A stretch of 64,000 bases of DNA, from positions 68,558 to 132,557 of the IMG/VR virus record IMGVR_UViG_3300044614_000912. The stretch is one strand, 5' to 3'. This document shows positions 16,001 to 57,412 of this stretch, in pieces. Position numbers and translations under genes: made by a program. Each line of letters begins with the position of its first letter. Positions within the stretch are counted from its first letter, which is position 1. The stretch comes from a virus. The notes below the pieces were generated by a model, which was given only the letters and a program-made list of their open reading frames with translations, was not told the DNA's origin and searched no databases.

Positions 16001-19000
16001 TATCCAGCATACATCGTATTGATCTAACAGTGTGATTACATTCTCATCTACTGTGTTGCCAACGTTTTGAAATAAGTTAAACAAAAACGAATCTGGATAT
16101 GCATCAATGAAACTAGTTCTCTTTGTCCAACCACCTAATTGTGCAATTAAAGATTCACCGTCTATCGTTCTACCAACTAGATTGGCGTAAAAATTAATAT
16201 TTTGATCGCCAAAGCCAGAATATAGATTATTTTCTGATTCGGTGAAAACACCCGCTATGAATACCAACTTAGAAGATTTGTTAGCTAATGTTTCTTCAAC
16301 GCAATAATATCCACGATTAGAAGCAATTTGTTTGTCTTCTAGAATTTCGGATTGAGGAATCGCATTAGCCATTATCAATGATTGTCTATCATCAAAAATT
16401 TCTGGAGTGTAAAATAAACCATTAGAATTAATTTGACCTTCATTAAGATTCAAATAGGATGATGTATTCTCGCCAGAATTCCAAATAAATGCTACGCTAG
16501 ATGGTGATATAGGAGCATCAAAAATAGTTTGGAATCTAGACTCTTCTACAGTCCTATATACTGGATATACTCCAGACACGGCTGGGGATGCTGGTATATT
16601 TGTTATTTTTGTCACATAATCGCCAGCCACTATCAATGGAACTGGTTCTTGCTGTGGGAAATCAAACGGTCCAACTTGCGGAACACAGCACGGTGGAGAA
16701 TATGTTCTAAACATGTAAGCCCAATTTACTGGATAATATACCCATTGATCTTTACAGTTTTTGCATCTATCTGTCCACTCTGCTCTAAGATCGCCTAGAT
16801 GCTTGAGTGGTAATTCGCATTTTTCATTAATAACTTCAAATGCTGACTCTCCAGAATCTATCAATTCTGATGGTAAAGCATCATTTTTAGATGTACATGG
16901 CATAAACTGGGCAAATTCTGGACTGTCTTTTAAGTACATGCGAATATCAGCAACGCCATAAGCTTTTGTGGTGATCGGCTCAATATATGATGGGGTTGTG
17001 TTACGCGGTATATAAGATGGTAGAGCCATTGAGCATCCAGAAGATAAAGCCTCATAAGAATTTCTGGCAGGATATAGTCTTAATCTAGACTTGACTCTAT
17101 CCAAAATCTTATTTATAATGCTGTTGGATGTTTCATATATTCCATTCTTTTCCCATATTGGATCGTTTCCAACCAGCACAAGATTTCTATCTCCTAATGC
17201 TAGCCAATTAAGAATGTTGTCTGTGACTTCATCGCTTAAAGCATCTACTTCTGGAGTAATAATGAATGCTAAACCCGCCTCTTGTGGAATATTAACTTCT
17301 GTAAATTCTGTCTTTCTGAAGTTCATGTCGCTAAATGCTGAAGCAAGATAATTGAAATGACCAGAATCTTCTGGAAAATCCATACTTTCTTGTAGATTTC
17401 CAAATTTTCCGAATTCTACGACACTATTATGTGGGTAATATTTTCTAGCTTCAAACAATCTGACGGCACCGGCATTTGTACTATTTATCCAGCTTGGACT
17501 AATTAGATTAGTATTTAGATTTTCATCATTATTTGGATCATTATATCCTTCATTTTTATACCAAACATTTCCATCTTCCCATTCATTAAAGCTATCAGTT
17601 GGGGCACCAAATGCAACAACTGTGCCATCTTCATTTACAGCAACGCTATAACCCAATCTTGATGTAGGAGCAAAATGTTCTGGTATGAAACTCCAAGTAC
17701 CAAAATTATAACTGATATTGCCATATCCATATGTGTAGATATTTTGATACTCTTGAATATTAAGATATTTTCTAGCTTCAAATTTTTCAGTTGAATCTAG
17801 TTTGGAATAAAGGATTTGATTTGCGTATTCTATTCCATAGGTATTCGACCATATTGCATAATCGGTGATCATATTCCTATATCTAGCAAATAAACCTCCA
17901 GTAATGGCATTTTTGTATCCAAGCCAAGAAAATAGACCAGCATAGAGTCTATCTTTTTCTTCTGGCTTGTACTCATAAACCTTACAAGCTTCTGAAATGT
18001 ATGGCGATCCAATGGCGATGACTTCTGTATCATCACTAATTGCTACTGCATGTCCAAATCTGTCTGGAATACCATATGTTATATTTGGAGAACGTATTTC
18101 TTGAACAAGATTCCATGCGCCGCTTTCTTTTTCAAATACATATACTCTGCCGCCGCTTTCTGGAGGATAATTAAACTGTGATAGATTTTCATTAAAGAAT
18201 TCCTGACCAACTCCAGATGTAAGATACTTGACTTGATTGTTGGATACAAGTCTTCCTGTATCAAGAACTTCCCCAAGAATAGTTTGGGACATGAATACCC
18301 AATTTTCTGCCGCACCAAAATCAGATTGATATTCTACAAATGCTCCAGAGCTTTGAATTCCATAAAAATCTCTTAATCCACTAGCAAAGCTATAGTTTAG
18401 ATAATAGTCTCTAAACATATTTTTAGCCTTACCCAACGCACCACGCATAGAAGCACTATCATCAACATACAATCCTAATATTGGTGGAATATTATTATGA
18501 ATTTTTGTCTCATCGTATGGGAAAGCCTCATTAAAGGCTTCTTTGATACCACTTAAAATTCTTTCATTTTGTTCTGGAGTTGGGATTCCTTTTACTCGTT
18601 CAATTTGTTTTTTGATGATAAAATTTGGTTTTGGTTCTGGAAACTCTTTAACGGTGACATTAGTAGAATTCTTAGTTGGTTCACAAATAATTAGTTTAAC
18701 GTCAAAACGAATTGGTGGTTCAGCAAAATATCTAAACAATAAGTCTTTGTTGTATATGGTGTCTAGTATGTCTTCGTAACTGTAATTTGGTCGTGGTTTT
18801 TTACCGGGGGCTGGTATAACTGGAGTAAATTCGTCAGTAAAGATCATTACTCCGATTTGTACGCCGGATGTATATAAATCCTCAAAATCTCTTTGCCATT
18901 TGGCACTAGGACCACCAACTACAAGAACTTCTCGTTTATTTTCTCCAAATGATTTATGAGTATCTGAAGCAGCTATATCAAGACTATGGCCGAACTGTCT

Positions 19001-22000
19001 GCCTTCTTGACCAACATTCCATTTTCTTTGAATCACAGTGGCTGGAAGTTCGATATTATCAATCTTGTTGGTTTCAATTCTATCATAGTAATCTTTTCTT
19101 AAACCAGATGGTAGATATAATCTTTCTTCCAGATACCAAGGCGATTTTTGCGTTCCATCGGGCCAACTATATCCACTTGGTCTATTATCTCTTCTAAAGA
19201 TATAAACAGCACCGGCTTCATCTAATGTACTAGTTACAAGGTTGCCACTAGAATCATATTCTGTATATGTAATATCATGACCGGGAGCGCCTATACAAGC
19301 TAGATTATTTTTGACTGCAACAGATTTACCAAATTTTTCATTGATTTGCCTTAAAGTAGAGCCTTGGTTACTATTTGGTGAATCAGCAGTAAGTTTTCTA
19401 TTAGTATAATTTGTATAACCATTATTTACTACTAGATCGTTAACAACTATTTCATCTGTTCCATATTCGCTTTCGATATATTCTGTTGGTAATTCTATAG
19501 TATTTTTACTTCCTGTCTTACCAATTACATTAACAAAGTATGGAGCCTGTGGTATAAGATTTGTGTACTTTCTAAGCCCGTAGAAGTGTCCACTATATCC
19601 AATTTCTGTCTTAAATCCACTTGTTTCCAAATTAGTGTATGTGTTCTTCGCTCTGAATATTCCTCCGTCAACGCAATCATTTGGTGTTGACCATATATCT
19701 TCGTGTAGAACAACTGATTCTTCTGTGCAGGAGCCAACATTTTGACAATTACCATAGCATAATAGTTCAACACCGCGTATTTCATCGTTTGCTTCTAGAT
19801 AAGCATATCTATTGTCATCAACAGCAATATTCTTGCCGGGATAATCACTATTCCAAGTAATTGTGTATTGTTGTGAGCCGGTGGCGCTGAATGCTGGATA
19901 ATTAACCAAGAATAGATTTACAGATGAATCTATATTTGTTACATCGAAATCTTTGCCACTAATCCATAGATTCATTCTTTCGCCGCCATCTACCAACGAA
20001 ACTGGTACTGGTGGAGAATTTATGAACATTGGCATAGCTTCTCTATAAATTACAGATACCCTCAATGGAGAAGCTTGCATATGCATAGTCATAGAAGAAC
20101 TATTGCTCTCTATGAGTCCTACGCTCTTAGTAAAGAGTTGAATAGAACCGCTAGCAGATTGATCTTCTATTCTATTTGTAATTGTAATCGGGAGAATTTG
20201 TTCATCGAATTTGTTATATCTACCAGACACATATAAGTTAGGGCCAAGATAGTAATCCTCACCGGCGGTGGCACCAAATAATTGAGAAGTAGAACTATTA
20301 ACAGAGCCTTTATTAAAAGTGAAGAGTCTAACATTTTGTGGGGTAGCATAATACGCTGAACCAATGAACATATTAACATTATCAGAGCTAACATCTGGCA
20401 GTGTGCCGCTGGTATAAAGCTGGAAGTCATCAGCAATAGTTCCGCGACCATAAACATATAAGTTAACGTCTTCTAGCCACTTCTTTTCTCCGTTTGAGAA
20501 TAGATTTAGTGAAGTATTAACATTTTCTTCTGATATCAGCGCATTCTCTAGTCTTACATTGGCTGAGTGTAATTTAATTCTTGATTCAAAAGGCGAACCA
20601 GATGGATACACTAAATCATATTGTAAGTACATCTGATTAATATCAGTGGAATAGTACTTAGTATCAAATTCTGTAATGCTTCTTTCTACATCAAAATTTG
20701 CCCAAGGCTCAGATGTGTCTATCAAATCTTGGTAAGTAAATTTGCTAGAAATCTTCTGCCAGCATCCAGATGGTTCTAGATAATGAATTGCTCTATTAAT
20801 CAAACCCCAATTTCTCTTACTTGGAGCATAAGATGGGTCTTGACTTGGGGTATACAAACTTACTATAAGTTTAGGACCGATATCTCCATTAGGCCAAATG
20901 ATGTTATTAAATGTTTCGTGTTCTAAAATTGTGTCAACTACCAATGCATCTTCTACAAAATTATATCCCCTCGGCAATGTCTTAGAAATTCTTGGATGTG
21001 CAGAGTAAAAATTGCCACTCGATGAAACGTCTGATAAGTATAGTCTTAAAAAGTCATTCTCTATTTGCGTGTGATATGCTAATCCAGAAGCCAATACATT
21101 AGAAGGTAATGGTAGGTTTGTTATTTGTGAATATCCAGAACCATGATGATTAATACTATGTAGTATATAATCTCTTCCAACTCTTTGAGTTAAGAAATCA
21201 AAGTCTGGTGAGAACTGACAAACTTTAAAATCACCTAAATGCCAACTATCTGTATCTTCTGATACCAATGTATTAAGAATATTTCTATCATCATGCCATG
21301 ATTCATTAGATGACCAATACTTATTTCTTTGTGATGCAAAAAATGATGGTACATCCGACGCCTTATAGAAACTATCTCTAAATCCTGTCTTGCTAGTAGA
21401 TATAGCCCCACTAGACTCTGGATACGAAATGCTAGAGAATGGAGTAAATCTTAAATTAGTCCTGTTATAAAATAAATTGCTTTGCTGAACTATAGCTTTA
21501 TTATGTGTTGATATTCCAATTTCACTAACAAACATATTTAATCCGACACCAGATGCTGGACAATGACCAATCAATAAATCATTATTACTTGGATTAAAAG
21601 ATACTATTCTTAGATTACCAATACTTCCGAAAGGAGCAATAAAGCCTCTATTTAATGTCCAAGCACCTTGAGAAATTTCATTATCGGTATACAAAAACAT
21701 GGAATTTGCCACGCCTAAAGAAGCATATGGTTCTTTGAATGTAACCATAGCTGACATGGGGAATTTGTATGCTGAATAATGTGCGGAATCTCTAGCCTTT
21801 AACATTACTCCAGAAATATAAGCATAAGCACACAAATGACCATTTTCATATCCAAGAACAAAACCTTGCTGTGAACCAGCATCCCACTGAGACATAACAA
21901 CGCCAGAATTGATTAAATTAAAGTTTGATCCACTTACTGGTAAGTCCGGTGAGAATCTAATATAAAAAGCAAATCCTTTAGAAGTATCAACTTGACCAAA

Positions 22001-24682
22001 ATTAATATAGCCATTTACTCCAGAAGTTCTTATGGCACTGTCAAAGTTATCGCCAATTTTTCCATATAATGGATCGTCTACAAAATCAACCGATCCATTG
22101 GATAAAGAAGTCCAATCTGTTGTCTTGTATGGTGAAGTAAAGCCCGGTAGTTGATTAGCAAATAAACTATTGCTATCGAATCTCCATCCGATATTCTTAA
22201 CTAAACTCTTTACATAATCACCGGTAAATGTACCGCTTAAACCGCCTAAGTTAGCTCCTAGTGGTACTGATAAGATATTATTTCCACTATTGCGGGTGAA
22301 ATTATAAAATCCTTCTAGGAATGGGTACTCTATAGTTGGATTAAAATAACCATAATCAAATTGTGCAGCATTGAAGGGGCCGTTTGTAATAGAGCCATTA
22401 ACACCAACCCACCGCTTAGAGTAATTTGTTTTGATCGAACTTGGAGAAGTAAATGCGTGTGGTAAATTTTCTAGTCTGGATATTGGGCCATATTCGTCGC
22501 TTGTATTGAATATACCATCTACAGACTGTCTTGTAGTCGGATATATTTTAACTTTTCTTCGCGTTAGCTCTTTTGAACCTTGAGCGAATGTATGCAACAT
22601 TAAACCATCAGATGGCTTATACTTCACCACCAGTTGGACGGTCGAAATAGTTGCTCCACTAGGAATAGGATATAAATCAAGAAAGAGATTTTCAATATAT
22701 GAACTGTTTCTGTAATCGGTTGATTTGCCTAATAAAACTGGGTCTTCATAAATTTTAAGTGGAATATTATACTCTTTGAAGCTAGTCGAATTGATCAATG
22801 GAGTTCTAGTTAATTCATAATGATCTTTAGCTGGATTTAATGTGATATCTCTAATATAGACTTGATCTTTTTCAGAGATAGATATGCTTGATATTCCCAA
22901 ATCATTTATATGCTTAAAGCCAGAAATTTGTGGAGTAAAACCGTCTTGATTAGCAATATCTACTATTAGGTAGTTGGACTCTGATGCTATAAAATTTGCA
23001 TCTTCATCTCCAAGATAAATTATTTCTGCATCGTTTTGTAAGAACGCACCTATCTTGGGAGTTCTATTTAATAATTTATCGTCATTGTATCCAACAACGT
23101 CTAAAGCGTAATCTGCTGACCCTACTGCTTTTTTAGCAATAACTTTGAGATAGACTTCATCAATAATAAAGAAATTGTCGTTTTCTTTAAGAGAAACTAC
23201 TTCCGATGTATTATAATTTTTGCCTTGGAACGCACCCTTAAATGGTCCGTTCGATTCTGCCCAAACAGATTTAGGTGGGAGGTTGGTAAATCTAAGTGTT
23301 AATCTACCACTATCTATGTGCGGCGTACTAGAGAGTAGTTTAATATAGTGAAATGGATAATCATCTTGAAGCCTTGATGCTGTTAAAGCTGGTTCTGTGA
23401 GACTATTATCTGTATTACCATATGAATCTGGATTAGATTCCCATAAACTATAAGCTTCTGGATAAATATCAACATCAACATCACTAGCAATCATATCTAT
23501 TGGAACAATATACTTAGTTAATCTTTGTCCAATTGGGGCAACATCAGTATAGAAGGGTATATAATTATCTCTTAAAATTCCAACGCCGCTAGAAAATACA
23601 ACGTCGTATCCTCCACTATTACATATTTCGATAGCAGATATTCTAATACTATTTTCTGGAGTAAGAGCAAAGCTTAAATTCTTGCTAGCATTTGCTTGTT
23701 CGCAAGATTCTTCGTACCCGACGTTAAATCCATCAGAAAATGGATCATAAAAGCACTGAGTATCAAAATCCAAATTTAATAAATAGCCACTAGGATATCC
23801 CATTAGTGGATAACCAGACTGCCAAGTGTGTAGCAATAAGTTGTTTGTCTCTGGTTCAGAGATATATGTAGTAAAATTTATATCATCTAATTGATAGTCT
23901 GCATCTCCTCGTACAAAAATATCCTTGTACTTGATAACGGTATTACCGCTGGGGTCAAGCAGTTTTATATTATGAATTCTATACTGTGGCGGTATATCAG
24001 ATGACTTTGTGTATGTTGGCGCGGCGGCGCGAAGAAAAACAAAACTATTTTCAGCATTATCAATGGGCCTAGTAACTTCACATGTATATCTAAAATCACC
24101 ATCACTCATCGTTGAAGATGGTTGAATATATGAAAATTTTTCGTCTGCTATGATCTTACTATTTTTGCCATTCTTAGTATAGTTACCAATAAATACGCCT
24201 TCATCAATATTAGAAAATAGATTGGTTGTGCTGTTTAACTTATCAACAAAATAACTATTGTTTAGTGATGTAACAATGTCTTTGATTGGATATAATTTTT
24301 GGGTTGCTTGAAAATTATCAAAAGCATTTAATGTGCCAAAATTACCAGCAAACTTATCAGTTTTGACATCATTTATAAGACTAGTGGCGGATACTCTAGA
24401 GCGTAAATTTCCATTTAATTGTAGAGTTGCTCTAATATCTCCTATGCCAGAATCTTGTAAGGCTTGTAAACCTATACTTAACTGAGCCTTGCTTCTGATA
24501 GCGCCTTCGCCGGATAATATGGCCGGTGTGATAGCTCTTAATGAATTACTGGCAACAATTTTACCAACTCCACCAATTCTCATGGTTGGTGAATGATTAA
24601 TAGTAGCTCTTGCGACAAAGTTACCGGCGGAACCGATTCTACTAGATTGATTTGATGTACAAGAAAAACAAACTTCACTCAT
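13007..24682 (-). CDS. Giant virion protein (3891 aa) with FG-GAP repeats and a LamG-like domain; probable adhesin/tail tip
   Basis: Seven FG-GAP-like blades (e.g. FGKSVAV..IGAP, FGHAVAIS..IGSP, LGYSVAV..FGAP, FGSDIDI..IGAP); LamG-like segment; immediately downstream of the tape measure. Confidence 0.7.
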   Translation of the reverse strand: MSEVCFSCTSNQSSRIGSAGNFVARATINHSPTMRIGGVGKIVASNSLRAITPAILSGEGAIRSKAQLSIGLQALQDSGIGDIRATLQLNGNLRSRVSATSLINDVKTDKFAGNFGTLNAFDNFQATQKLYPIKDIVTSLNNSYFVDKLNSTTNLFSNIDEGVFIGNYTKNGKNSKIIADEKFSYIQPSSTMSDGDFRYTCEVTRPIDNAENSFVFLRAAAPTYTKSSDIPPQYRIHNIKLLDPSGNTVIKYKDIFVRGDADYQLDDINFTTYISEPETNNLLLHTWQSGYPLMGYPSGYLLNLDFDTQCFYDPFSDGFNVGYEESCEQANASKNLSFALTPENSIRISAIEICNSGGYDVVFSSGVGILRDNYIPFYTDVAPIGQRLTKYIVPIDMIASDVDVDIYPEAYSLWESNPDSYGNTDNSLTEPALTASRLQDDYPFHYIKLLSSTPHIDSGRLTLRFTNLPPKSVWAESNGPFKGAFQGKNYNTSEVVSLKENDNFFIIDEVYLKVIAKKAVGSADYALDVVGYNDDKLLNRTPKIGAFLQNDAEIIYLGDEDANFIASESNYLIVDIANQDGFTPQISGFKHINDLGISSISISEKDQVYIRDITLNPAKDHYELTRTPLINSTSFKEYNIPLKIYEDPVLLGKSTDYRNSSYIENLFLDLYPIPSGATISTVQLVVKYKPSDGLMLHTFAQGSKELTRRKVKIYPTTRQSVDGIFNTSDEYGPISRLENLPHAFTSPSSIKTNYSKRWVGVNGSITNGPFNAAQFDYGYFNPTIEYPFLEGFYNFTRNSGNNILSVPLGANLGGLSGTFTGDYVKSLVKNIGWRFDSNSLFANQLPGFTSPYKTTDWTSLSNGSVDFVDDPLYGKIGDNFDSAIRTSGVNGYINFGQVDTSKGFAFYIRFSPDLPVSGSNFNLINSGVVMSQWDAGSQQGFVLGYENGHLCAYAYISGVMLKARDSAHYSAYKFPMSAMVTFKEPYASLGVANSMFLYTDNEISQGAWTLNRGFIAPFGSIGNLRIVSFNPSNNDLLIGHCPASGVGLNMFVSEIGISTHNKAIVQQSNLFYNRTNLRFTPFSSISYPESSGAISTSKTGFRDSFYKASDVPSFFASQRNKYWSSNESWHDDRNILNTLVSEDTDSWHLGDFKVCQFSPDFDFLTQRVGRDYILHSINHHGSGYSQITNLPLPSNVLASGLAYHTQIENDFLRLYLSDVSSSGNFYSAHPRISKTLPRGYNFVEDALVVDTILEHETFNNIIWPNGDIGPKLIVSLYTPSQDPSYAPSKRNWGLINRAIHYLEPSGCWQKISSKFTYQDLIDTSEPWANFDVERSITEFDTKYYSTDINQMYLQYDLVYPSGSPFESRIKLHSANVRLENALISEENVNTSLNLFSNGEKKWLEDVNLYVYGRGTIADDFQLYTSGTLPDVSSDNVNMFIGSAYYATPQNVRLFTFNKGSVNSSTSQLFGATAGEDYYLGPNLYVSGRYNKFDEQILPITITNRIEDQSASGSIQLFTKSVGLIESNSSSMTMHMQASPLRVSVIYREAMPMFINSPPVPVSLVDGGERMNLWISGKDFDVTNIDSSVNLFLVNYPAFSATGSQQYTITWNSDYPGKNIAVDDNRYAYLEANDEIRGVELLCYGNCQNVGSCTEESVVLHEDIWSTPNDCVDGGIFRAKNTYTNLETSGFKTEIGYSGHFYGLRKYTNLIPQAPYFVNVIGKTGSKNTIELPTEYIESEYGTDEIVVNDLVVNNGYTNYTNRKLTADSPNSNQGSTLRQINEKFGKSVAVKNNLACIGAPGHDITYTEYDSSGNLVTSTLDEAGAVYIFRRDNRPSGYSWPDGTQKSPWYLEERLYLPSGLRKDYYDRIETNKIDNIELPATVIQRKWNVGQEGRQFGHSLDIAASDTHKSFGENKREVLVVGGPSAKWQRDFEDLYTSGVQIGVMIFTDEFTPVIPAPGKKPRPNYSYEDILDTIYNKDLLFRYFAEPPIRFDVKLIICEPTKNSTNVTVKEFPEPKPNFIIKKQIERVKGIPTPEQNERILSGIKEAFNEAFPYDETKIHNNIPPILGLYVDDSASMRGALGKAKNMFRDYYLNYSFASGLRDFYGIQSSGAFVEYQSDFGAAENWVFMSQTILGEVLDTGRLVSNNQVKYLTSGVGQEFFNENLSQFNYPPESGGRVYVFEKESGAWNLVQEIRSPNITYGIPDRFGHAVAISDDTEVIAIGSPYISEACKVYEYKPEEKDRLYAGLFSWLGYKNAITGGLFARYRNMITDYAIWSNTYGIEYANQILYSKLDSTEKFEARKYLNIQEYQNIYTYGYGNISYNFGTWSFIPEHFAPTSRLGYSVAVNEDGTVVAFGAPTDSFNEWEDGNVWYKNEGYNDPNNDENLNTNLISPSWINSTNAGAVRLFEARKYYPHNSVVEFGKFGNLQESMDFPEDSGHFNYLASAFSDMNFRKTEFTEVNIPQEAGLAFIITPEVDALSDEVTDNILNWLALGDRNLVLVGNDPIWEKNGIYETSNSIINKILDRVKSRLRLYPARNSYEALSSGCSMALPSYIPRNTTPSYIEPITTKAYGVADIRMYLKDSPEFAQFMPCTSKNDALPSELIDSGESAFEVINEKCELPLKHLGDLRAEWTDRCKNCKDQWVYYPVNWAYMFRTYSPPCCVPQVGPFDFPQQEPVPLIVAGDYVTKITNIPASPAVSGVYPVYRTVEESRFQTIFDAPISPSSVAFIWNSGENTSSYLNLNEGQINSNGLFYTPEIFDDRQSLIMANAIPQSEILEDKQIASNRGYYCVEETLANKSSKLVFIAGVFTESENNLYSGFGDQNINFYANLVGRTIDGESLIAQLGGWTKRTSFIDAYPDSFLFNLFQNVGNTVDENVITLLDQYDVCWIANPAGLPSQQELTDLLSWLNGPNKKLIITYDNNISQVLLAKQLSDMIGSRIKPLYLPVLDQYAVVDGAESLEFNSIHPVSTGWNVNTSIEYFEVVSQSRFTPIALVENTVPVCYDYRPIYDKKFITNGYWKSLSGVTKVSFPALPGSGYKIFITTISETPAETEDLFIATQNVNMRITTNPSDSDTEGLFGYDLGAGYSVDKLGNLRRATYSIENKPVTYSFDAQVIREASTINFYIANNNERLSVKTNSYIPKTTRLLGISGVLVPIETVRIPEFYQVFDRNEYYRISDPQPAQTLTEVIVSPILNDNTVYCADGCEDTLGHKQIADGPVIVAQEIEHFSQFMTGVARSRITLISDSSLVQGQCMGDDNFRMSSETVRFLRSLYPYTNWPDTNSGRQYTIMTKIMPPERGSPQKYRSIVNNSGLAHLFGDFAGSPVGLSSFSNKESRYDPKFVKRPKKNPWPDGATSEEIENIKQGIISGFKGIQTSHGATAMFSGVIDGKLYRDAGIGGGMPDLMKEKGYDYLDFDITQSGFPGDLFGYSVALYKNKLVVGSPFSAYSREEISSWDYILDGGSTSGIELSYNGGAGAAYLFERNNKGSGLHGTFTPWSFTQKLRPDSINVGSNSGIEIMGDKFGSDIDIDGDIIAIGAPGHDYGNYVINGSGDFIRRCFNPEFRIPSRAVIDLGNSGIRNTYDPSIVNANTIINMGAIFTFENKIVDWPTKKQEWVYVEKLVENAPFYHEYTLYGTDVSDRFGESVALDRSKRTDADYTIIGGSHSETSNREQYAYDELGLPLSYDQFVTGAGAAFITDIMLRGQAPAIQSPDSFIDAKFFGETNASGDPAIFLSFKNNLDANKEYKATGIIYSNYQGEIFVEASGQDPVLKGFIEHRPYIKSVEGTYFFGIPNSGNLPLFTDGAQNASGNINLFTSVDSIINVYNDLGLYTSSVDGIISNEPSGMLLYVHTPDPIIVSESGLMLFMASGVGSYSDNLNLRIRGK

Positions 24683-24684
24683 TA

Positions 24685-27600
24685 TTAGACCTTTGGCATA
24701 GTTGATGAATTTTCTATGAGTTTTCCACCAGAGCCGACGCTGGTATTTTTGATCTTATCCGAGACAATTTTTGCAATTTCATTTCTTGCTTCCTGCGTTA
24801 AACCGGCAAGCATACCGCTATTTCCAGAAAAATTTACATTTACATTTGTACTATCTAATGTAATCTTAAATTTTGTATCTTGAAGAGATTTAATAGTATC
24901 CGACATTTGAGAAGTAAATGTCGTTAATGCCTTGGTAAGCATAGAGATAACGTCTGTACCAAGAATATTCTGGACTATTCCGTTTAATAATCCTCCTCCA
25001 GCTAAATATTGTACTTTTCCGCCCCTAGCAAAGTTTTGAACACCGGCTGATGCTCCCGCTGAACCGCTTAGACCATTATTCATAGCTTGTAATAGTTGTA
25101 GATTGTTACCTCTATTTACAGCTTCTCGTCTTACAACGAACTCTCCGGGTGTTAACATTGCGGGAACGGTATCTGTTCCACGGGGAACGAAGATACCCCT
25201 ACTTGCATACACGGTTCCGCCTTTTCTGAACATTGTAGGCTCACGGCCTCTACCGGCAGCTTCGGCATCTCTAGATGCTCTTTCATCTTCTGCCGACTGT
25301 TTAACCTCTGGAGCCATTCCCCTATCCCTAGTATTACTAACGGCTTCTTCGGCCTTCTTTTGAGCGGCCTGTAACTGTATATTTGCGGCATCTAGTTGTG
25401 ACTGAGCAGCTTGAACTTGTAAATCGGCGGTTGGACCCATAGTGCCAGCTAATGCACGTATATCGCTCTTTACTGCTTCTTCTTCTGGAGTGGTTCCTGC
25501 TAGCATTTGTGCTGCGGCTGGATTCTGAACACCTCTGGCCGATAATGCGGCTGTTGCAGCTTTCTCACCCAAACCACCCGGACCAGCAATACGTTGACCG
25601 TATATTTCTTGAACGCCAGCTTCTTTTTGTCTTTCAATATCAGAATAAGCACCAGCCAATGCTGTGGCACCAAATGCATTCATAAGGTCTTGATTACCAG
25701 TTGCTATTGCGGCTGTAGCTCCAACGGCGGCTTGTTGATCAAAGAACTTCTCTATATCGCCATTTATTAGCGATTCCATAGACTGTTTCTCAAGCTTATT
25801 TTTCTCTTCTATAGTCTTGAGTTCTTCTTCTTTGGCTTTAATCAAATCTCTAGTGGTTTGTATTTGACTCTTAGCTGCTTCGTTGAGTCTTCTTTCCTCT
25901 TCTTCCAATTGTAATCCAGCTTCACCAGCCAATTTAGCTTGAGCTTCTTTATCTCCACTTGCTGCCGCAGCCCTAATGCCCGCTATTTCTTGCTGCCTTG
26001 CTCCAATTTGCTGTGTTCTTTGTGTGATTTCAGCAGCACTTCCTGTCTTGAGATTATCAACACCTTGTATTCCGGTTGCTTGAACATTAGCTTGTGCTAC
26101 AATATTAGCTCGTCTTTCTGCTGGCGTGACAGCTTTGCCGCCGTATTTTGCTTCAATATCTCTTGCTTCCATCTGCACATTTAAAGCCTCTTGCTGTGCA
26201 GACATTAAATTGCGTTCTGCTTCTATTCTATTTTTAGTAAGCTGATTAAGTTGTTCTTGGATTTTTATTGCATCATTAAGTGGGCCGTTAACTTGCTCAA
26301 GAACTTTCTTGCCAAAATCACCCATAACCTCAGAGAAAACTCCAAAGTTACCTTCTCCAAGAGCGTTGAGTTGATCTTCTGATAATGTATCGGCCTGTGC
26401 CTGTAAACGCTTGATAGTATCGTCATCATATTTTCTATTACCAGCAGCATCTGTTTGAGCAGCAAGATTTTTACCAAGAATATCCTTAAAAGCTTTTCTT
26501 CTATCTTCTGCGCTACCGGAACTCAATCTTCCCTTAAGATCGCTCTTTGTTTGTTCAAAAATAGTAGCGGAATTCTTTTGAACTTCGTTAATAGATTTGA
26601 GATTACCCTTAAACTTATCAATTTGTTTATCATTTGCTCCAAATCTTCTAAGGGTTGCTTCAGCATCGCCAAGGGCAGCGTCAAAATCAGCATCGCTAAT
26701 GCCTTGAGCAGCAGATGTTACGCTGGCTTCAAGTGTAGCTAAAGATTGTTGTAATGGTATATTGCCAGCCTGTTGAGCAGCAATATAGTTAGTTATACCA
26801 AGTGCTGCTGCGGCAGAAGCACCTTGAACGTCTTGCATACCAAGGTCCATAGCTTCAAAAGCTTTTCTAGTTCTTTCTGCCTCCTTTTGTAAATTCTCAA
26901 AAGATTTATCAAGCTCTCTGGCTTGTTCTTCTAATACGGCGGCTTGTTCTCTAAATGCATTAGCTTCGTCTTTATTACCAGCAGTATCAGCTTCTGATGC
27001 TTTTATTCTCAATTGACTCATTCGACTTCTCATAGCACCCGGAGAATTAGCACCTAATTGAGCATCAATTTGCTCACGGGTCATGCCTTGAGCGATACCA
27101 CGCTTCATGCTTTCATTGACAACCGGCCTAGAAATATCAAAAGCCTTTCTTTCAGCTTCCGCGTTTTGTTTTATTAATCCGGCATTCTCTTTATCGATTC
27201 TTTCATTTCTTTGTTTGCCAGATTCTAAGCCAAAATATCCAGCTAAACCTAGTGTTGCAACTCTAGCTGTACCACGCAAGAAGCCTCCAACAGCCCCGCT
27301 CTTATTGCCCTTGTTAGATTCAACAGCTTTTTCATTGGCAGTTTGCATCGCCTGTCTTGAAGCTTGTACATTAGAAATTTTAGCAAGAGCTTCACCAGCA
27401 CTAATCGTTCCATTTTGTAAATCTTCTAAAGCAGAAGAAGCGTCTTTTTGTCCTTGTTCAAAAGCCTTTTGAGTTTTAACCGCTTGAGCTTGTGCAGAGG
27501 CTAAATCTTTGATACTATCATAAGTGTTTCCACCAAAGGCTTGACCAAGACCAATGAATGCTCTATTTACATAGTCAGTTCCAAAAATTGCTTTTTCTAT

Positions 27601-30600
27601 AGATGGCAGAAATTTTGTTGCTAATGCTACGCCTGCGCCAGCAATACCACCTATTAATGTTCCTACACCGGGAACAAGGCTACCAATAGCGGCACCCGCT
27701 AAAATAGCTGATGAACCAAAAGAATCAATACTTTCTTGAGCGGCGACATTGACAGAATTTTCTGATGCTTTGCCTATGTTACCTTCTTGTATAGCTTTAT
27801 TAGCTTGGTTTTGATAGTCAAAATAAGAATTAACAGCAGAAGATGCTGCCATTAAACCAACTTCTACCGCTAAAAGTGGTCCAGCAAAAGCATTTAAGCC
27901 TTTTGTAATTGTACCAACAGCTTTACCAAAAGATGCTACTCCAACATTGCTTATCGATCCGGCCATAGCTTTTTGGCCCATTGAACCGCCCATACTTGCA
28001 AATGGATTTGCTCCAACTTTGCTAGGAAGACCTACACCTTTCATTCCAGCATTAAATCCCTTAGATAAATCTCCAAATGCTGTTCCGGCTCTTCCAGATG
28101 TTTTTGCGACAAATTTTTGGAACCCACTAGCACCGCTCATGGATGACATAGTTGCTCCGCGACCCATAGAACCACCCATATTAACAAATGGATTGTTTCC
28201 TATGGCTCCAGATTTTACAGCTGAAAATAGTCCAGCTTGATTTTTCATTCCTCCACTAAAAGCTGAACCAGCAACATTTGCAGCACTAGATAAACTAGGT
28301 AAAGCCTTGCCGACACCACCAGCTATTTTACCACCAATACCACCTAACCTACCACCAATGTTGCCAATAATCTTGCCAACGCCAGAAAATTGTCCAGAAA
28401 GATTGCCTAAAGTTTGAGTTAAACTACTAGCACCACTCAAAAACTGTGTCATGGTTTGCACATTCAAAGCAACACCAAAAGCTTCTAAAGCGAAGCCAAC
28501 AGTTGTCAATGTTGACACAACGCCAAGCAATCCATGAGACATTCTTACAATAGCCCCAGAATTTTCATCTAGTGCTGGTAACATGCTTTGCATTAATCCA
28601 ACCGTCATGGAAGCAGCGAACATTTTGTTCGCAGAAACGCTTTCCATAATACTACGTTTTTGTTGGCCTTGAGCATTAACTAAATCTTCTGCTTGCTGAG
28701 TTAATGCATCTAGTGGTATAAAATTACCACCATTACCGCTGCCACTAACAGGAGATGGTCTAACGCCAGTAGCGGCTGTGCCAGTAGCGAATCTTTGAAC
28801 AATACCACCATTAGCGTATTTACCAACTTTATTCATACGGTTTAAATTACCGTATCCAATACTTTGGGCGGATGCTCTGTTTACAACAAACTCGCCGGGG
28901 GTTAATAATGCTGGAACAGTATCGGTTCCAACTCCACCTCCCGCAGCAAATCTGGCAACTCTTGTTGATCTTGGACCCTTGGCTCTTAATGCATCCATTG
29001 CGGGCTGTTTACTACCGCCCTGAGTAAATATCATATTTGCAAGTGGGATACCAAATAATCTACTAAGATACTCTGCAACTCCCGGCACCCTTTGAGATTT
29101 ACTAATGATGGATAATCTACCGGGCTGTAATTGTCCAGATTTTATAGCTGTTTGTAATTCTTTGCCAAACACGGTAAGCGGAGCAGATGTAACGTCTTTT
29201 AATCTAGCCTTTGGATCACGGAAATATTTATTTAGTGCGGCTGATTGTTGACCCGACGTTTTAGCCATACCATAAGCTTTGTCACCAATTGTTCTTTTTA
29301 GAGTTCTATCGATATCAATAGCACCACCGCCAGCTTTAATTAATGCTGCAATAGCAGAACTTGGGCGAGGCATCATTGTTCCGCTAGCATTTATGATATC
29401 ATCAATAAGTGGAGCTTTAGCCATACCGCCAGCAGCAAATTTCTGTATCAGTCCACCAAACTGTTTTCTAACAAGTTTGATACCCTCTAGTCTATTTATA
29501 TTGATATCGTTTTGAATTTTCTTAGATAACCCATCCGATCCAGTTAATAGACTCTTTGATCTTTTGACTTCTGCCTTTAAGAGTTTTGAAATTCTAGCGT
29601 CTTGACCGAACATTGATTGTAAATTTTGAACATCGTCTGGCAAGGAACCATATGGTAAGTCAAAATTGGCTCTGCCGCCAGCGGTTTTGGCACCGGTGAT
29701 ACTACTTATAATACCTTCAAATAAATAACCCTCTAAAGATGCTCTAAGATTTGTATCAGACACCATGTTCTGTAAAGCATTACCAATTAATGATGGATTG
29801 CCAATAAATGCTGGATCGGCTGATAGTAGATTTTTAGATTGAATTTCTGATACTGCATAATTTAATGATTTTTGAAAACCTCTTGTTGTTGCTTTAGAAA
29901 CTATGCCGCTAAATTGTTTTGATTTTTTAACATCTTTAAGACCGGGGTAAAATAATGGATAGGATGCACCTTCTAATATTGCTGGCATTGGTGCCATTTT
30001 ATCTTTTGTGCTTCCCGGCACAGCAGCGTCTGCACCACCATATGTCTTTAGAATACTTTTGTATAATTTACTGTTGGGGGATAGATTGAATTGAGTGTTA
30101 CCAGCTTTATAAAAGTCATCCGTACTCTTTGGGGGGTCTAAAACAAAGGCTCCAATTTGATTTGGAACTGGTCTAAATACAGGGGTTTGACCAAATTTGG
30201 AAACACCCTTTCTCATGCGAGAAGTTTCAATTGTTTCGCTGGTTTTACCAGCGTTTTTAATGGTGCCAGAGACTAAAGATTGTGGTTCTTTTTTGTTACC
30301 AGCAGCAGTTTGCGCTCTTGCTGCTGCAATTTTTTGTGCAGTAGTCATAGGACCGCCCTCTTTAAAGCGGTTCTCATTCATAGCAGCGAGGTTTCCTGCA
30401 CCTAACCTGTTCACGCTACTTTTACGTATAACAAATTCTCCCGGCTGTAACATGGCTGGAACAGTATCACTGTTGCCAGTACCGGGAACCATTCCGCCTC
30501 TAGCAAATTTATGAACTTTACCGCCTTTATTAAAGGTTCTTCCAGAGGCCAATCCTCCTCCAACTCCACCTAAGAATCCACCAATACCTCTAGTCAATTT

Positions 30601-31878
30601 AATAGCAGCCATAGCTCCTAATAATGGAATGAGTGGCTTGATAGACTCCGCTAATTTAATAAGAGCAGATGCTAGGGATAGTGCGGTATTAGCAAAAGCT
30701 TGGAATGTAGATGTTTCTGTTATACTACGAACTAAAGCCAAAAATTCTTCTTTGACTTTCATAATTCTGATAGCTAATGCGGCTTGTGCCGACGCAGCAT
30801 CTGCACTTAAAGAATTACTTGCTTTGGTAGCAACATTCAATGCCGCTTGGGCAGTAGAGAATTGTTGTAGTAATGGTAGAACTTTACCAATCTGACGGAA
30901 TCCGCCAAGTTCTTCTGCAATCTTGATAAATGTAATATCTCTGTCGCCAAGTCCCTTTAAGCCTTCGCTTAGTCTACGAATAGCCTCATAAGGACCGACG
31001 AACTTGCCCTCAAGATCAACAAGTTCAACGCCAAATTGTTTTAAGAATTCAATAGTTTTGGGACGCTGAATACGAGTAAAAATGGTACGCAAGCCAGTAC
31101 CAATACTTTCAGCACTTTCTCGCGTTGTGGCTCTAACGCTTGTAAATAGCGCAAGCAATTCATTTAAGCTACCACCAGAAGATTTAAAAACACCACCAGT
31201 TCTACGAACAACGTCAATTAAGTCACTAGCTTCTACAGCAAATGCGCCAGCGACAGCATTGATAGAACCAAGTTGTTTTTCTAAAGCTCCAACGCCTTCT
31301 TGGAACTGTGCTAAAATAGCAATAGCTCCTTCTGCCGTTTCAGTAATACTATCAAAGTTAGGAGCAAGGGCAGCTTTTGCTAAAGCATTAAGAGCTACTT
31401 TAGTATCATTAGCAGAAAGACCAGCCTGTGCTAAAACTGTAGTTACTTCCAATAACGAATCTGATGAAACACCAAGACCGGTAGATAATCTAGTAATTTC
31501 ATTAGTCAAGTCCCTCAATTGACTAACACTTTTACCAGTTACCTGAGAAACTTTGATCAATTGTCTTTCAAAGTTAATAGCGGTTTGTACAGCATCTCCA
31601 AGAGTGCTAGTAAATAAACCTACCGCTCTGGTGGCAATAGAGAATGCAGCAAAACGACGAACGGATACAGCAAATGCTCGTCCCATCCTTTCAGCCGCTG
31701 TTGTGGCTTGATTGACGTTCTGAGTTACTTGCTGTATCTGTCGTTGTGCTTGTGCAGAACCTTGAACTTGTAGATTAACAGTTACGCCATTTAACTGATT
31801 TTGTATCTGGCGAACTACTTGTGCTACATTGTTAGGTGCTTGTAATTGTAATTGTGCAGTTAGTACGAATCTGGACAT
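24685..31878 (-). CDS. Tape measure protein (2397 aa)
   Basis: TP901-type N-terminal TMP domain (INFERQLIKVSQVTG, GTGLRTIFTRI), Ala/Gly-rich helical regions, and three DTVPA[ML]LxPGEFV motifs; follows the tail tube and chaperones. Confidence 0.9.
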   Translation of the reverse strand: MSRFVLTAQLQLQAPNNVAQVVRQIQNQLNGVTVNLQVQGSAQAQRQIQQVTQNVNQATTAAERMGRAFAVSVRRFAAFSIATRAVGLFTSTLGDAVQTAINFERQLIKVSQVTGKSVSQLRDLTNEITRLSTGLGVSSDSLLEVTTVLAQAGLSANDTKVALNALAKAALAPNFDSITETAEGAIAILAQFQEGVGALEKQLGSINAVAGAFAVEASDLIDVVRRTGGVFKSSGGSLNELLALFTSVRATTRESAESIGTGLRTIFTRIQRPKTIEFLKQFGVELVDLEGKFVGPYEAIRRLSEGLKGLGDRDITFIKIAEELGGFRQIGKVLPLLQQFSTAQAALNVATKASNSLSADAASAQAALAIRIMKVKEEFLALVRSITETSTFQAFANTALSLASALIKLAESIKPLIPLLGAMAAIKLTRGIGGFLGGVGGGLASGRTFNKGGKVHKFARGGMVPGTGNSDTVPAMLQPGEFVIRKSSVNRLGAGNLAAMNENRFKEGGPMTTAQKIAAARAQTAAGNKKEPQSLVSGTIKNAGKTSETIETSRMRKGVSKFGQTPVFRPVPNQIGAFVLDPPKSTDDFYKAGNTQFNLSPNSKLYKSILKTYGGADAAVPGSTKDKMAPMPAILEGASYPLFYPGLKDVKKSKQFSGIVSKATTRGFQKSLNYAVSEIQSKNLLSADPAFIGNPSLIGNALQNMVSDTNLRASLEGYLFEGIISSITGAKTAGGRANFDLPYGSLPDDVQNLQSMFGQDARISKLLKAEVKRSKSLLTGSDGLSKKIQNDININRLEGIKLVRKQFGGLIQKFAAGGMAKAPLIDDIINASGTMMPRPSSAIAALIKAGGGAIDIDRTLKRTIGDKAYGMAKTSGQQSAALNKYFRDPKARLKDVTSAPLTVFGKELQTAIKSGQLQPGRLSIISKSQRVPGVAEYLSRLFGIPLANMIFTQGGSKQPAMDALRAKGPRSTRVARFAAGGGVGTDTVPALLTPGEFVVNRASAQSIGYGNLNRMNKVGKYANGGIVQRFATGTAATGVRPSPVSGSGNGGNFIPLDALTQQAEDLVNAQGQQKRSIMESVSANKMFAASMTVGLMQSMLPALDENSGAIVRMSHGLLGVVSTLTTVGFALEAFGVALNVQTMTQFLSGASSLTQTLGNLSGQFSGVGKIIGNIGGRLGGIGGKIAGGVGKALPSLSSAANVAGSAFSGGMKNQAGLFSAVKSGAIGNNPFVNMGGSMGRGATMSSMSGASGFQKFVAKTSGRAGTAFGDLSKGFNAGMKGVGLPSKVGANPFASMGGSMGQKAMAGSISNVGVASFGKAVGTITKGLNAFAGPLLAVEVGLMAASSAVNSYFDYQNQANKAIQEGNIGKASENSVNVAAQESIDSFGSSAILAGAAIGSLVPGVGTLIGGIAGAGVALATKFLPSIEKAIFGTDYVNRAFIGLGQAFGGNTYDSIKDLASAQAQAVKTQKAFEQGQKDASSALEDLQNGTISAGEALAKISNVQASRQAMQTANEKAVESNKGNKSGAVGGFLRGTARVATLGLAGYFGLESGKQRNERIDKENAGLIKQNAEAERKAFDISRPVVNESMKRGIAQGMTREQIDAQLGANSPGAMRSRMSQLRIKASEADTAGNKDEANAFREQAAVLEEQARELDKSFENLQKEAERTRKAFEAMDLGMQDVQGASAAAALGITNYIAAQQAGNIPLQQSLATLEASVTSAAQGISDADFDAALGDAEATLRRFGANDKQIDKFKGNLKSINEVQKNSATIFEQTKSDLKGRLSSGSAEDRRKAFKDILGKNLAAQTDAAGNRKYDDDTIKRLQAQADTLSEDQLNALGEGNFGVFSEVMGDFGKKVLEQVNGPLNDAIKIQEQLNQLTKNRIEAERNLMSAQQEALNVQMEARDIEAKYGGKAVTPAERRANIVAQANVQATGIQGVDNLKTGSAAEITQRTQQIGARQQEIAGIRAAAASGDKEAQAKLAGEAGLQLEEEERRLNEAAKSQIQTTRDLIKAKEEELKTIEEKNKLEKQSMESLINGDIEKFFDQQAAVGATAAIATGNQDLMNAFGATALAGAYSDIERQKEAGVQEIYGQRIAGPGGLGEKAATAALSARGVQNPAAAQMLAGTTPEEEAVKSDIRALAGTMGPTADLQVQAAQSQLDAANIQLQAAQKKAEEAVSNTRDRGMAPEVKQSAEDERASRDAEAAGRGREPTMFRKGGTVYASRGIFVPRGTDTVPAMLTPGEFVVRREAVNRGNNLQLLQAMNNGLSGSAGASAGVQNFARGGKVQYLAGGGLLNGIVQNILGTDVISMLTKALTTFTSQMSDTIKSLQDTKFKITLDSTNVNVNFSGNSGMLAGLTQEARNEIAKIVSDKIKNTSVGSGGKLIENSSTMPKV

Positions 31879-31910: not shown

Positions 31911-32789
31911 TTAGCTAGCCGTGTGTTTGGTTCTTTTTTTGGGTTGATCTTCGGACTTTACTTCTTCCTTAGACTCTTCCTTTATATCATTAACATATTC
32001 CACGGTTGGTACGTAATTTCCAAACTCGTCTAGTGGATTACCGTCCCTATCTACACGTTGACCTTCGGTATTGATATAGTATCCACTCTTGTCTATTCTT
32101 CTACCGTCTAAGTCAACTGTTTCTCCCTTGTCGTTGACAAGACTAAGGTTGTCATCAACAAGTTTGAACATTTTAAGGAACTTATTTTCTGGTAATTTAG
32201 CTTCGAAATCCTTATCTACAGCATATAGCATAGATGCTAGAGCGGTAGCAGCCGCGAAGCCTATTTCACCATCAGCATTTTCTCTATAGTCATCCAAGTC
32301 TTTATACACTTTCTGTCCATTTTCATAAAATGTGGAATTTGATACCAAAAAGTCGAATCGGGCATTGTCAGAAATGGCCTCTGCGGTATTCTGCTCTAGG
32401 CTCATTCTTTCTGCAATTAAGTCTCGTAATTCTGACCTTTTCACTCTCATTTTAATAGCAATATCCTTGCCTTCTGAGGCTCTAAGTTTGCCATCCTTGT
32501 GAGTGCCGCTGACGAAAAGCTGCTTTTCTAGGTCACTAATTTCTTTTACAATTTTCTTCTGTTCCTCGTCTTTTCCGTCATTCCAGATATCTTGTTCTTT
32601 CATGAACTTTTCTAGTTCTTTTTTGGTCATAATGCCATCTCGTACACAATCAGTCCAAGCTTTGGCACCAACCCTTTGAGCTTGGGACATAACAGCATTA
32701 TTGGGGCGACGAATCAGAATTTTAACAGTTTCTTCTACACCATCTCTGGTAACTTTAACATCAATCTTCTTTTCCTTGTCCTGTGACAT
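31911..32789 (-). CDS. Tail assembly chaperone-like protein
   Basis: Charged helical protein just before the TMP. Start reassigned to the ATG at 32789 (MSQDKEKK) because AGGAGG lies just upstream. Confidence 0.6.
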   Translation of the reverse strand: MSQDKEKKIDVKVTRDGVEETVKILIRRPNNAVMSQAQRVGAKAWTDCVRDGIMTKKELEKFMKEQDIWNDGKDEEQKKIVKEISDLEKQLFVSGTHKDGKLRASEGKDIAIKMRVKRSELRDLIAERMSLEQNTAEAISDNARFDFLVSNSTFYENGQKVYKDLDDYRENADGEIGFAAATALASMLYAVDKDFEAKLPENKFLKMFKLVDDNLSLVNDKGETVDLDGRRIDKSGYYINTEGQRVDRDGNPLDEFGNYVPTVEYVNDIKEESKEEVKSEDQPKKRTKHTAS

Positions 32790-32800
32790 GGGTTTCCTCC

Positions 32801-33151
32801 TTAGTTCTTTGGTTGTTGGATAACGGGCATTTTGATCGAATATCTTAACCACTCAACATCATATTGGGCTAATTCAGCATCAATATTTCGTGCTTGGTTA
32901 TTTCCTTTGTCTAATATATCTGAACGAATTTTATTATATAGATTCTTCATAGCCTCTTGTTCTTTGGTCAACTTGCCGTCTGGGCTATTCCATAAAAATC
33001 CAAAATTTTCTTCGATTGTGCTTAAAGCTCCAATCATAGTGGTTTGAATTTTCTTTTTAAGAATTTTTGACAGTCTATCTTTAGAATCTGCCTTATACTT
33101 TGTTTCTCTGAGTTTTTTATATTCTGAAACTTGTTGTTTGATATCGTCCAT
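32801..33151 (-). CDS. Hypothetical protein in the tail chaperone region
   Basis: 116 aa, AGGAGG RBS, stop/start overlap with the upstream gene. Confidence 0.6.
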   Translation of the reverse strand: MDDIKQQVSEYKKLRETKYKADSKDRLSKILKKKIQTTMIGALSTIEENFGFLWNSPDGKLTKEQEAMKNLYNKIRSDILDKGNNQARNIDAELAQYDVEWLRYSIKMPVIQQPKN

Positions 33152-56915: not shown

Positions 56916-57412
56916 GATTTTCTCCCTATAGTGTACATTTCGTTGACACGCTTGAGAATACTGCTAACTGCTAAAAATGCATTATATTTGTTACCACAGA
57001 ATAGCACATGAACGTCATTATATAGCTGGAATTCGAATAAGCATTTAAGCATATACTTTCCAGTAATTTTGACAGAAGCTTTATTTTTAATTGGAATTCT
57101 AGTCTCTTCGGGAAATTTGATTAAGTCTTCAAGAGAAAATTCTAAAACAAGAAACTTATGATCAAAAGGAGCCATCCTATCTATCTCTTCTAAGAAGGTA
57201 TACTTCTTTTGGCCTAAATTGATTGCTAATTCTTCTACGCAGCCTTTGCGTTCGATACATATCTTGTCTTCCAAGCCTTGTATGGTATAATCACCAGTAT
57301 CTAGCTTTTGTTCAATCATTCCAGCGCAAGCGTTGTACTCTTTAAAGAAGTATCCATCTTGCTCTCTAGTATCTTTTATAACCGTAAATTTTGGGGCTTC
57401 TTTATAAGGCAT
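56912..57412 (-). CDS. Stand-alone ERCC4 (XPF/Mus81-type) nuclease
   Basis: DTREQ, LDTGDY and ICIERK signature motifs. Confidence 0.85.
   Translation of the reverse strand: MPYKEAPKFTVIKDTREQDGYFFKEYNACAGMIEQKLDTGDYTIQGLEDKICIERKGCVEELAINLGQKKYTFLEEIDRMAPFDHKFLVLEFSLEDLIKFPEETRIPIKNKASVKITGKYMLKCLFEFQLYNDVHVLFCGNKYNAFLAVSSILKRVNEMYTIGRKS

Follow-up and report, generated by a model that had tools for sequence, protein, structure and literature searches.

The locus described here raises the question of why a phage tape measure protein (TMP) should carry globular, enzyme-like sequence between repeated glycine motifs. It lies in a 64,000-nucleotide stretch of virus DNA (the window), which is the final 64 kb of the 132,557-bp IMG/VR record IMGVR_UViG_3300044614_000912 (completeness estimate, 86%); the source is an uncultured phage of ~150 kb. 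The original prediction, made from the letters of the window, was that the TMP is a polyprotein whose nuclease-like and haloacid dehalogenase (HAD)-like domains are released at [FY]xxGG sites and injected into the host as swappable cargo. Our analysis leads to a reading that shares part of this proposal and that we hold to be, on balance, probable: window positions 28780–30545 encode a recombination-prone slot of the TMP with two folded domains, which are exchanged at glycine-containing joints and act in the host.

Exchange of cassettes between glycine-flanked units

The slot belongs to a 2397-aa open reading frame (ORF) that is, judging by its family matches, a TMP of the TP901/PhageMin_Tail type. 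PF10145 (PhageMin_Tail) matches aa 127–313 with 94.7 bits against a cut-off of 33.2 (Pfam), and the PHROG tape-measure families matched are phrog_28, 4211, 167, 1533 and 4704. The gene and its parts are as follows.

24685–31878, minus strand: TMP gene, 2397 aa (ORF; PF10145; PHROG tape-measure families)
30940–31500, minus strand: PhageMin_Tail domain, aa 127–313, within the conserved N-terminal 440 aa (Pfam)
30343–30546, minus strand: joint/box unit 1, aa 445–512, with FNKGG, FARGG, DTVPAMLQPGEFV and FKEGG (motif scan)
29464–30342, minus strand: module A, aa ~513–805, a hypervariable domain predicted to fold (AlphaFold2, alignments)
29563–29757, minus strand: conserved core of module A, with D708, G717, E721, F739-D740 and A769-[D/E]770-x-K772 (alignment A1)
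29425–29463, minus strand: inter-cassette joint FGGLIQKFAAGG, aa 806–818, which holds the FAAGG of aa 814 (breakpoints against relatives P0004 on the right and P0003 on the left)
28954–29424, minus strand: module B, aa 819–975, a conserved, putatively Rossmann-like and HAD-like domain with D855-x-D857-R-T859
28780–28953, minus strand: joint/box unit 2, aa 976–1033, with FAAGG, DTVPALLTPGEFV and YANGG (motif scan)
24994–25230, minus strand: joint/box unit 3, aa 2217–2295, followed by the C-terminal ~100 aa (motif scan, lambda comparison)

The motifs on which the original prediction was built all lie in the TMP where it had placed them (motif scan). Boxes of the form DT[VI]PA[ML]LxPGEF[VI] occur at aa 471, 986 and 2236 (nt 30430–30468, 28885–28923 and 25135–25173), and [FYW]xxGG motifs at aa 449 (FNKGG), 458 (FARGG), 505 (FKEGG), 814 (FAAGG), 951 (FTQGG), 977 (FAAGG), 1021 (YANGG), 2217, 2283 and 2291. 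Between the first two boxes are GYLFE (aa 717; 29716–29730), NFD (aa 738), AEVK (aa 769; 29563–29574), AIDIDRTL (aa 853; 29299–29322) and LSIISKS (aa 922). The TMP has 10 [FYW]xxGG motifs, whereas its sequence, shuffled 2000 times, had 1.47 on average and never more than 7; for aa 441–1040 the observed number is 7, and the shuffled mean and maximum are 0.55 and 5. A chance origin of the number of motifs was rejected, as 0/2000 shuffles reached the observed value.

The boundary motifs turned out to be the two flanks of a ~70-aa unit, which reads FAxGG, DTVPAxLxPGEFV, IGxGNLxxMN and YAxGG, each box having an [FY]AxGG on both sides. The motifs edge a box unit or the joint, except for FTQGG at aa 951, which lies inside the conserved core of module B and marks no boundary. 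At the nucleotide level the FAxGG codons at aa 457–462, 812–817, 976–981 and 2282–2287 are alike but short. Unit 2, modelled as a monomer, has a predicted local distance difference test (pLDDT) score of <50 (AlphaFold2).

An unbiased sample of relatives was obtained with the N-terminal 440 aa, which retrieved 2188 protein clusters at E ≤1e-20; the best 120 of these, 77–96% identical, were taken. An A-like domain was found in 118/120 and module B in 27/120. Median identity to the window TMP was 82% for the N-terminus, 81% for box unit 1 and 84% (83.6%) for box unit 2, each alignable in 120/120 relatives; it was 33.5% for module A, alignable in 43/120, and 67.7% for module B, alignable in the 27. 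The A-like domains of the sample are of four deeply diverged types (A, 44; C0, 65; C2, 7; C5, 2), and hhalign ties the other types to A with a probability of 97.1% for C0 and of 92.0% and 87.5% for the remaining ones. Even the divergent C0 type keeps the signature G..FE / FDF / DAK. By these alignments, module A is near-universal and hypervariable with a small set of invariant polar residues, and is not optional cargo. Of the two modules, B is the optional one.

Individual relatives reveal where the exchanges took place. P0004 is 93–98% identical to the window TMP over aa 1–480, 28–50% over aa 481–780 and 90–98% over aa 841–1020, and the switch points are ...NENRF|KEGG, which is the FKEGG edge of unit 1, and |QKFAAGG. 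P0003 is identical up to KFAxGG, has an unrelated ~140-aa cassette replacing module B, and is identical again from FAxGGGVGTDTVPA. In P0071 and P0072, FAxGG-type joints flank every cassette, and a joint of the FGGLIQKFAAGG type brackets their ADP-ribosyltransferase and B cassettes. Module A precedes module B in 68 proteins and follows it in 12. When A, B and the boxes had been removed, 100 slot segments were left, which formed 29 clusters.

The ADP-ribosyltransferase was recognized as ADPrib_exo_Tox (PF03496), which scored above its cut-off of 23.4 beside module B in 2/18 relatives scanned (P0071, aa 1067–1276, 28.5 bits; P0072, aa 943–1101, 29.8 bits); the Pfam scan found no ADP-ribosyltransferase domain in the window TMP. 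An ADP-ribosyltransferase (ART)-like cassette, marked by an STS motif and by ExE or QxE, is present in 23 of the 217 proteins collected, and in 11 of the 120 relatives selected by their N-terminus (lists compared by eye). One further cluster, C1, was considered as B-like (hhalign, 95.9%) and rejected, as it consists of an ART-like cassette plus the box; the box columns of alignment A2 most probably account for its match to module B.

A FastTree phylogeny with 121 rows, built on the N-terminal 440 aa, requires 41 changes of A-type (shuffled mean 45.6, minimum 37) and 20 changes in the presence of B (shuffled mean 25.5, minimum 19). Since these counts are near the shuffled means, slot content appears nearly unlinked to the TMP backbone. 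Taken at the level of sequence, the region between the motifs is a cassette slot with exchange at [FY]AxGG joints, and module B and the ADP-ribosyltransferase are optional cassettes. The earlier suggestion that the inter-motif segments are variable cassettes agrees with the breakpoints at the joints, with the lack of linkage to the tree and with the ADP-ribosyltransferase in the slot of relatives.

A second hypervariable stretch was noticed downstream in the same protein, at aa 1021–1440 (window 27559–28816, minus strand). It is glycine-rich, with hydrophobic windows (Kyte–Doolittle ≥1.6) at aa 1120–1138 and 1390–1420; its identity to P0004 is 18–63%, compared with 82–100% for its flanks, and it could be aligned in 17/120 relatives.

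The box unit also occurs alone in proteins of cultured phages, at 49–64% identity over ~45–65 aa (tblastn). Its carriers include Synechococcus phage S-SM2 (7674–7808), Achromobacter phage JWF (22737–22889) and Ralstonia phages YO163_3 and YO026_2, and these proteins are annotated as transmembrane protein, as tape measure / putative lysin, or not at all. When aa 445–1033 were searched by tblastn against 50,697 phage records, 10 records matched through the box alone (7–11% of the query), and the modules were found in none of the records.

The two domains of the slot

A search with aa 500–985 gave a first homologue set of 109 proteins of 1361–3873 aa, most of them with PF10145, and local alignments split this region into the two modules. 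The original prediction had described the segment as globular and unlike the rod of a tape measure, and the AlphaFold2 models concur, with mixed strands and helices and most residues at pLDDT ≥70.

Module B is 56–87% identical across 36 relatives. Fourteen of its residues are kept in 92/92 copies: D855, D857, T859, R862, T863, D866, R892, D895, T902, K927, S928, N948, T952 and K957. In its AlphaFold2 model, which has three strands, ten-residue blocks over aa 817–978 reach pLDDT 85–96; for module B together with box 2, 156/238 residues are at pLDDT ≥70, in mixed strands and helices. The putative HAD motif I, D855-I-D857-R-T859, comes immediately after a predicted strand (aa 852–854). The candidate for motif II, S926, ends the predicted strand aa 922–926 and is Ser in 89/92 and Thr in 3/92 copies, its equivalence being suggested by the model; K927 and K957, candidates for motif III, are invariant (92/92). 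The first 10 rows of a Foldseek search were AphA (six) and human phosphoserine phosphatase (four), with E values of 0.033–0.11. The invariant Arg, Lys, Thr and Ser residues, together with DxDxT, would suit a site of phosphoryl-group binding or transfer.

By the searches made, module B is an orphan family, to which no Pfam family matched. Against 1.84 billion representatives, phmmer gave 55 hits, 51 of them at E ≤1e-10, and those among the latter that were scanned or already known are all tape measures. The four weakest hits (P0214–P0217) look spurious, with unrelated Pfam families. A stand-alone module B was found neither among proteins of 90–287 aa (236 candidates, none at E ≤0.001) nor in GTDB species genomes (14 pattern hits, 0 confirmed). 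The ESM Atlas returned viral hypothetical clusters only, with scores ≤0.90; one row contains P22 gp16 on 18% of its members, which we take as a lead only.

Module A is ~30% identical in most relatives. Within alignment A1 (25 sequences), D708, G717, E721, F739, D740, A769, K772 and K787 are invariant; E721, D740 and K772 are kept in 35/35 copies of the module, and position 770 is Asp in 23 and Glu in 12 of them. The AlphaFold2 model has a mean pLDDT of 70.2 and a predicted template modelling score (pTM) of 0.61, with pLDDT ≥70 for 188/311 residues. It starts with a strand-rich N-terminal part, followed by long helices, a helix with E721, a short strand with D740, a strand with E770 and K772, a helix and a final strand. 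D740 and the ExK motif are 30 residues apart, and predicted helices fill this distance instead of a hairpin. Relative P0035 has two short module A signatures, at aa 627–674 and aa 1225–1277, which read GYAFES...FDF...LDAK, with a D-to-DxK spacing of 22, not 30, and GYIFEA...LDAK.

Foldseek found no match for the module A model (PDB, best E 1.4; BFVD, best E 0.64), model residues 143–227 being those mainly tested. The query matched 0 Pfam families, its 25 alignment members matched no nuclease family at E up to 10, and profile A1 matched 0 PDB chains. Assignment of module A as a PD-(D/E)xK nuclease, though possible, is not supported by these searches. What stands of the original nuclease proposal is the invariance of E...D...(D/E)xK in 35/35 copies, which together with the predicted order of the elements is compatible with a PD-(D/E)xK core; a fold or family match to go with it was not found in these searches.

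Possible functions of the slot

In the explanation that we favor, the slot is fenced by copies of the ~70-aa glycine-flanked unit (FAxGG, DTVPAxLxPGEFV, IGxGNL, YAxGG) and would hold A and B as two independently folded domains, the folding being predicted from models. Nearly all members of the lineage would have module A, in the form of exchangeable alleles that have diverged deeply and yet all keep E, D and (D/E)xK. Module B would be an optional cassette, strongly conserved where present, with a Rossmann-like, HAD-like fold and an invariant DxDxT. As described in PMC12617516, tape measures exit the tail before the DNA does and either form an envelope channel or enter it. By leaving before the DNA, the TMP would bring the slot domains to the envelope or cytoplasm of the host, where they would work as enzymes or as contact surfaces in an arms race with the host. 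The joints would serve at least as linkers and recombination edges; the suggestion that they might also be cut comes from lambda, whose own unit adjoins the cleavage region. Alignments demonstrate the anatomy of the slot, its conservation and its exchange at the joints; catalysis by its domains is suggested by the invariance of their residues and by the occurrence of a true enzyme family, the ADP-ribosyltransferase, in the slot of relatives.

Several points weigh against this explanation. The presence of an A-like domain in 118/120 relatives is no less compatible with an integral structural or host-contact part than with "cargo". For module A, four fold searches gave no match, and they tested mainly its two long helices. 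For module B, HAD motif IV was not found, there being no conserved acidic pair, and the sole candidate, D962, is kept in 74/92 copies. The module B model has three strands, and its alignments to AphA and class C phosphatases end at chain residues ~160–173, which we take to precede motif IV of those phosphatases. Receiver domains, which are not hydrolases, score nearly like HAD folds, and no sequence match to HAD was obtained in Pfam (E up to 10) or in the PDB (phmmer and profile). The original assignment to HAD accordingly keeps its DxDxT (92/92) and its top Foldseek rows; given that there is no sequence link to HAD and no motif IV, we call module B HAD-like, which is weakly supported, and not a HAD member. 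As to the exchange, the 109-protein set was chosen for having module A or B, and frequencies taken from it are biased. The N-terminal sequences in the tree are very similar and may themselves recombine, and the near-random spread of the cassettes therefore overstates the number of independent exchanges. Catalysis, host delivery and joint cleavage are proposals drawn from sequence and model.

Modules A and B could instead be built-in structural or host-contact parts of the TMP and not enzymes, which we consider possible though rather doubtful. They might dock on inner-membrane or periplasmic proteins, form part of a trans-envelope conduit, or be the target of exclusion or defence proteins; the hypervariability of module A would then reflect escape from, or adaptation to, such partners, and metal binding or stabilization of the fold would account for the invariant polar residues. 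The near-universality of the A-like domain in relatives selected by their N-terminus speaks for this, as does the divergence of module A (alignable in 43/120, median 33.5%) next to an N-terminus and boxes at 81–84%, and a second hypervariable stretch lies in a hydrophobic, glycine-rich region. No enzyme family was matched by sequence (Pfam), and receiver-like, non-hydrolase folds score as well as HAD for module B. However, 14 invariant charged or polar residues in 92/92 copies of B, and an invariant E/D/K set within a module A that is ~30% identical, are more typical of active sites, and the same slot holds a true enzyme family, the ADP-ribosyltransferase, in relatives. A narrower alternative makes module A an unrecognized cell-wall hydrolase with E721 and D740 as catalytic acid and base. 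TMPs with peptidoglycan hydrolase motifs are a known precedent, as described in PMC1796659 and PMC12617516. Module A is near-universal in the family, and its model has a Glu in a helix and an Asp ~19 residues on, on a short strand; nevertheless, neither Pfam nor the fold searches gave a lysozyme, transglycosylase or peptidase match. To our knowledge, invariant lysines such as K772 and K787 are not typical of cell-wall hydrolases, and we regard this assignment as very improbable.

The polyprotein of the original prediction, in which cleavage at the [FY]AxGG joints frees A, B and the ADP-ribosyltransferase of relatives as effectors in the virion or the host, seems unlikely to us. Joints bracket every cassette and are highly conserved (boxes, 81–84% median identity), the homologous unit of lambda gpH lies just past a glycine-rich cut region, and the window has a gene (56271–56915) for a ClpP-like head maturation protease. 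Yet the joints could equally well be conserved for a part in assembly, as linkers or as recombination edges, and cuts at ≥3 internal joints would leave the ruler in pieces; unless made after assembly, such cuts sit badly with a single, continuous chain that determines length. In the account given in PMC12617516, the lambda cut is not pinned to an exact site or enzyme, so the analogy places no cut at FAxGG. The premise that TMPs are "often" processed was overstated, cleavage being shown only for lambda and T5 as far as that account goes. We find quite unlikely the broader version, in which the TMP of this abundant lineage is a general injection vehicle. Its slot, with lambda-type glycine joints as its fence, would take up interchangeable effectors by recombination, namely a HAD-like enzyme of phosphoryl transfer, a nuclease-like domain in many diverged alleles and ADP-ribosyltransferases, and cleavage of the joints would release them to act in the host. 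As the slot part of the TMP lies headward in the tail and leaves last, the effectors might work close to the leading DNA end. If this were true, tape measures would be, beside capsid-packed proteins, a main route for counter-defence and host take-over enzymes.

Under the explanation preferred here, exchange at the joints of a slot whose domains act in the host, a large uncultured lineage (2188 protein clusters) has a defined, exchangeable slot in its ruler, with non-lytic, enzyme-like domains that include a bona fide ADP-ribosyltransferase in relatives. If the slot domains do act in the host, the tape measure would be a modular delivery device, and the slot a place to seek new phage effectors and the targets of host exclusion. 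The conserved joint unit offers a testable handle on the site and role of the cleavage that yields lambda gpHC, and module B, with its 14 invariant polar residues, is a compact target for structure and assay work.

Surroundings of the gene and known systems

On the 5′ side of the TMP gene are genes for the large terminase, a ClpP-like head protease and virion proteins, and on its 3′ side ORFs of 3891, 557, 113, 1579 and 1187 aa. The TMP neighbours have no family match, and tail tube, chaperone and hub were not recognized among them. The terminase is ≤26.6% identical to any of 50,697 deposited phages (Bacillus siphophages); the phage therefore has no cultured relative. The 3891-aa ORF (13007–24682, minus strand) begins 3 bases past the TMP stop; its sole Pfam match is to FG-GAP_2 repeats (63.7 bits, near aa 3526–3549), no PHROG family matches, and it is a candidate for a giant component of the tail tip or a fibre. 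ORFs of 313 aa (31911–32852, minus strand) and 116 aa (32801–33151, minus strand), immediately upstream of the TMP gene, overlap by 52 bases, and neither matches any family. The spot just upstream of the TMP is the usual place of tail assembly chaperones made with a programmed frameshift. A 105-aa ORF with a TTG start (30197–30514, plus strand), opposite the TMP strand, is most likely a chance frame.

The ClpP-type head maturation protease gene (56271–56915; PF00574, 75.5 bits) has an overlap with the terminase gene, at the end of the latter, and adjoins an ERCC4-type nuclease gene (PF02732, 31.1 bits), both within 56271–57412 (minus strand). At 57879–60647 (minus strand) are sugar-nucleotide genes, among them a nucleotide-sugar epimerase (phrog_540, E 4.8e-70), a phrog_1458 member and a gene resembling heptose 7-phosphate kinase / heptose 1-phosphate adenylyltransferase (phrog_7878, E 1.2e-33); these may be auxiliary genes that modify the host envelope.

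Among known systems, lambda gpH offers the closest sequence likeness. Its HFATGG...GEFV...IGVGNLYRL..YATGGYV at 732–784 aligns with box unit 2 in all four sub-motifs, and profile A2, which includes box 2, has PDB 8iyk_H as its sole meaningful PDB sequence, a weak match (E 0.022, 17.5 bits). In gpH the unit stands a short way ahead of the C-terminal end that binds the tip, and box unit 3 has the corresponding place in the window TMP. As reported in PMC12617516, gpH is cut in a glycine-rich region near residues 690–710 to give gpH* and gpHC; the unit lies in gpHC, next to the cut region. Structures show gpH residues 818–849 only (PDB 8IYK chain H; PMC10721106, PMC12617516), and the comparison with the unit is sequence-based. 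Lambda has one such unit and the window TMP three; in gpH, moreover, there are no folded cassettes between units and, in the account of PMC12617516, no known enzyme activity.

Other systems share parts of the arrangement. The Tmp of mycobacteriophage TM4 (PMC1796659) and the C-terminal fragment of T5 pb2 (PMC12617516) are described, like the slot domains proposed here, as having a catalytic domain inside a TMP that is carried to the host envelope. Here, by contrast, no cell-wall hydrolase is matched by the domains, of which one is HAD-like and one of unassigned fold, with an ADP-ribosyltransferase in relatives, and their slot is open to exchange and has repeated joints as its borders. In actinobacterial contractile injection systems, the Sle1-type effectors described in PMC13277306 have a TMP-related scaffold and exchangeable domains, are loaded in the tube and are ejected. 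They are cargo of bacterial machines with a C-terminal variable domain, whereas the present cassettes are internal to the phage's own ruler, and the likeness is one of description. Polyvalent proteins (PMC5512222, PMC7824862) combine many conflict-type domains, ADP-ribosyltransferases among them, in a single chain that is presumed to enter the host together with the DNA; they are not rulers ("tape measure" has 0 occurrences in PMC5512222), and what they share with the relatives is the general ART family. At the level of single domains, module B is 12–14% identical to HAD class B and C acid phosphatases (AphA, 2B82 and 1Z5G; P4-type, 3PCT, 2I33 and 3ET4), with no profile match. Module A resembles PD-(D/E)xK nucleases in the order and invariance of its residues and differs from them in the helix-containing 30-residue gap between D and ExK. 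A literature search found no paper that places an ADP-ribosyltransferase or, among the top matches, a haloacid dehalogenase inside a tape measure. TMPs with cell-wall hydrolases, and a lambda TMP that is cut and forms a trans-envelope channel, were known before; the lineage described here has an exchangeable slot with non-lytic, enzyme-like domains.

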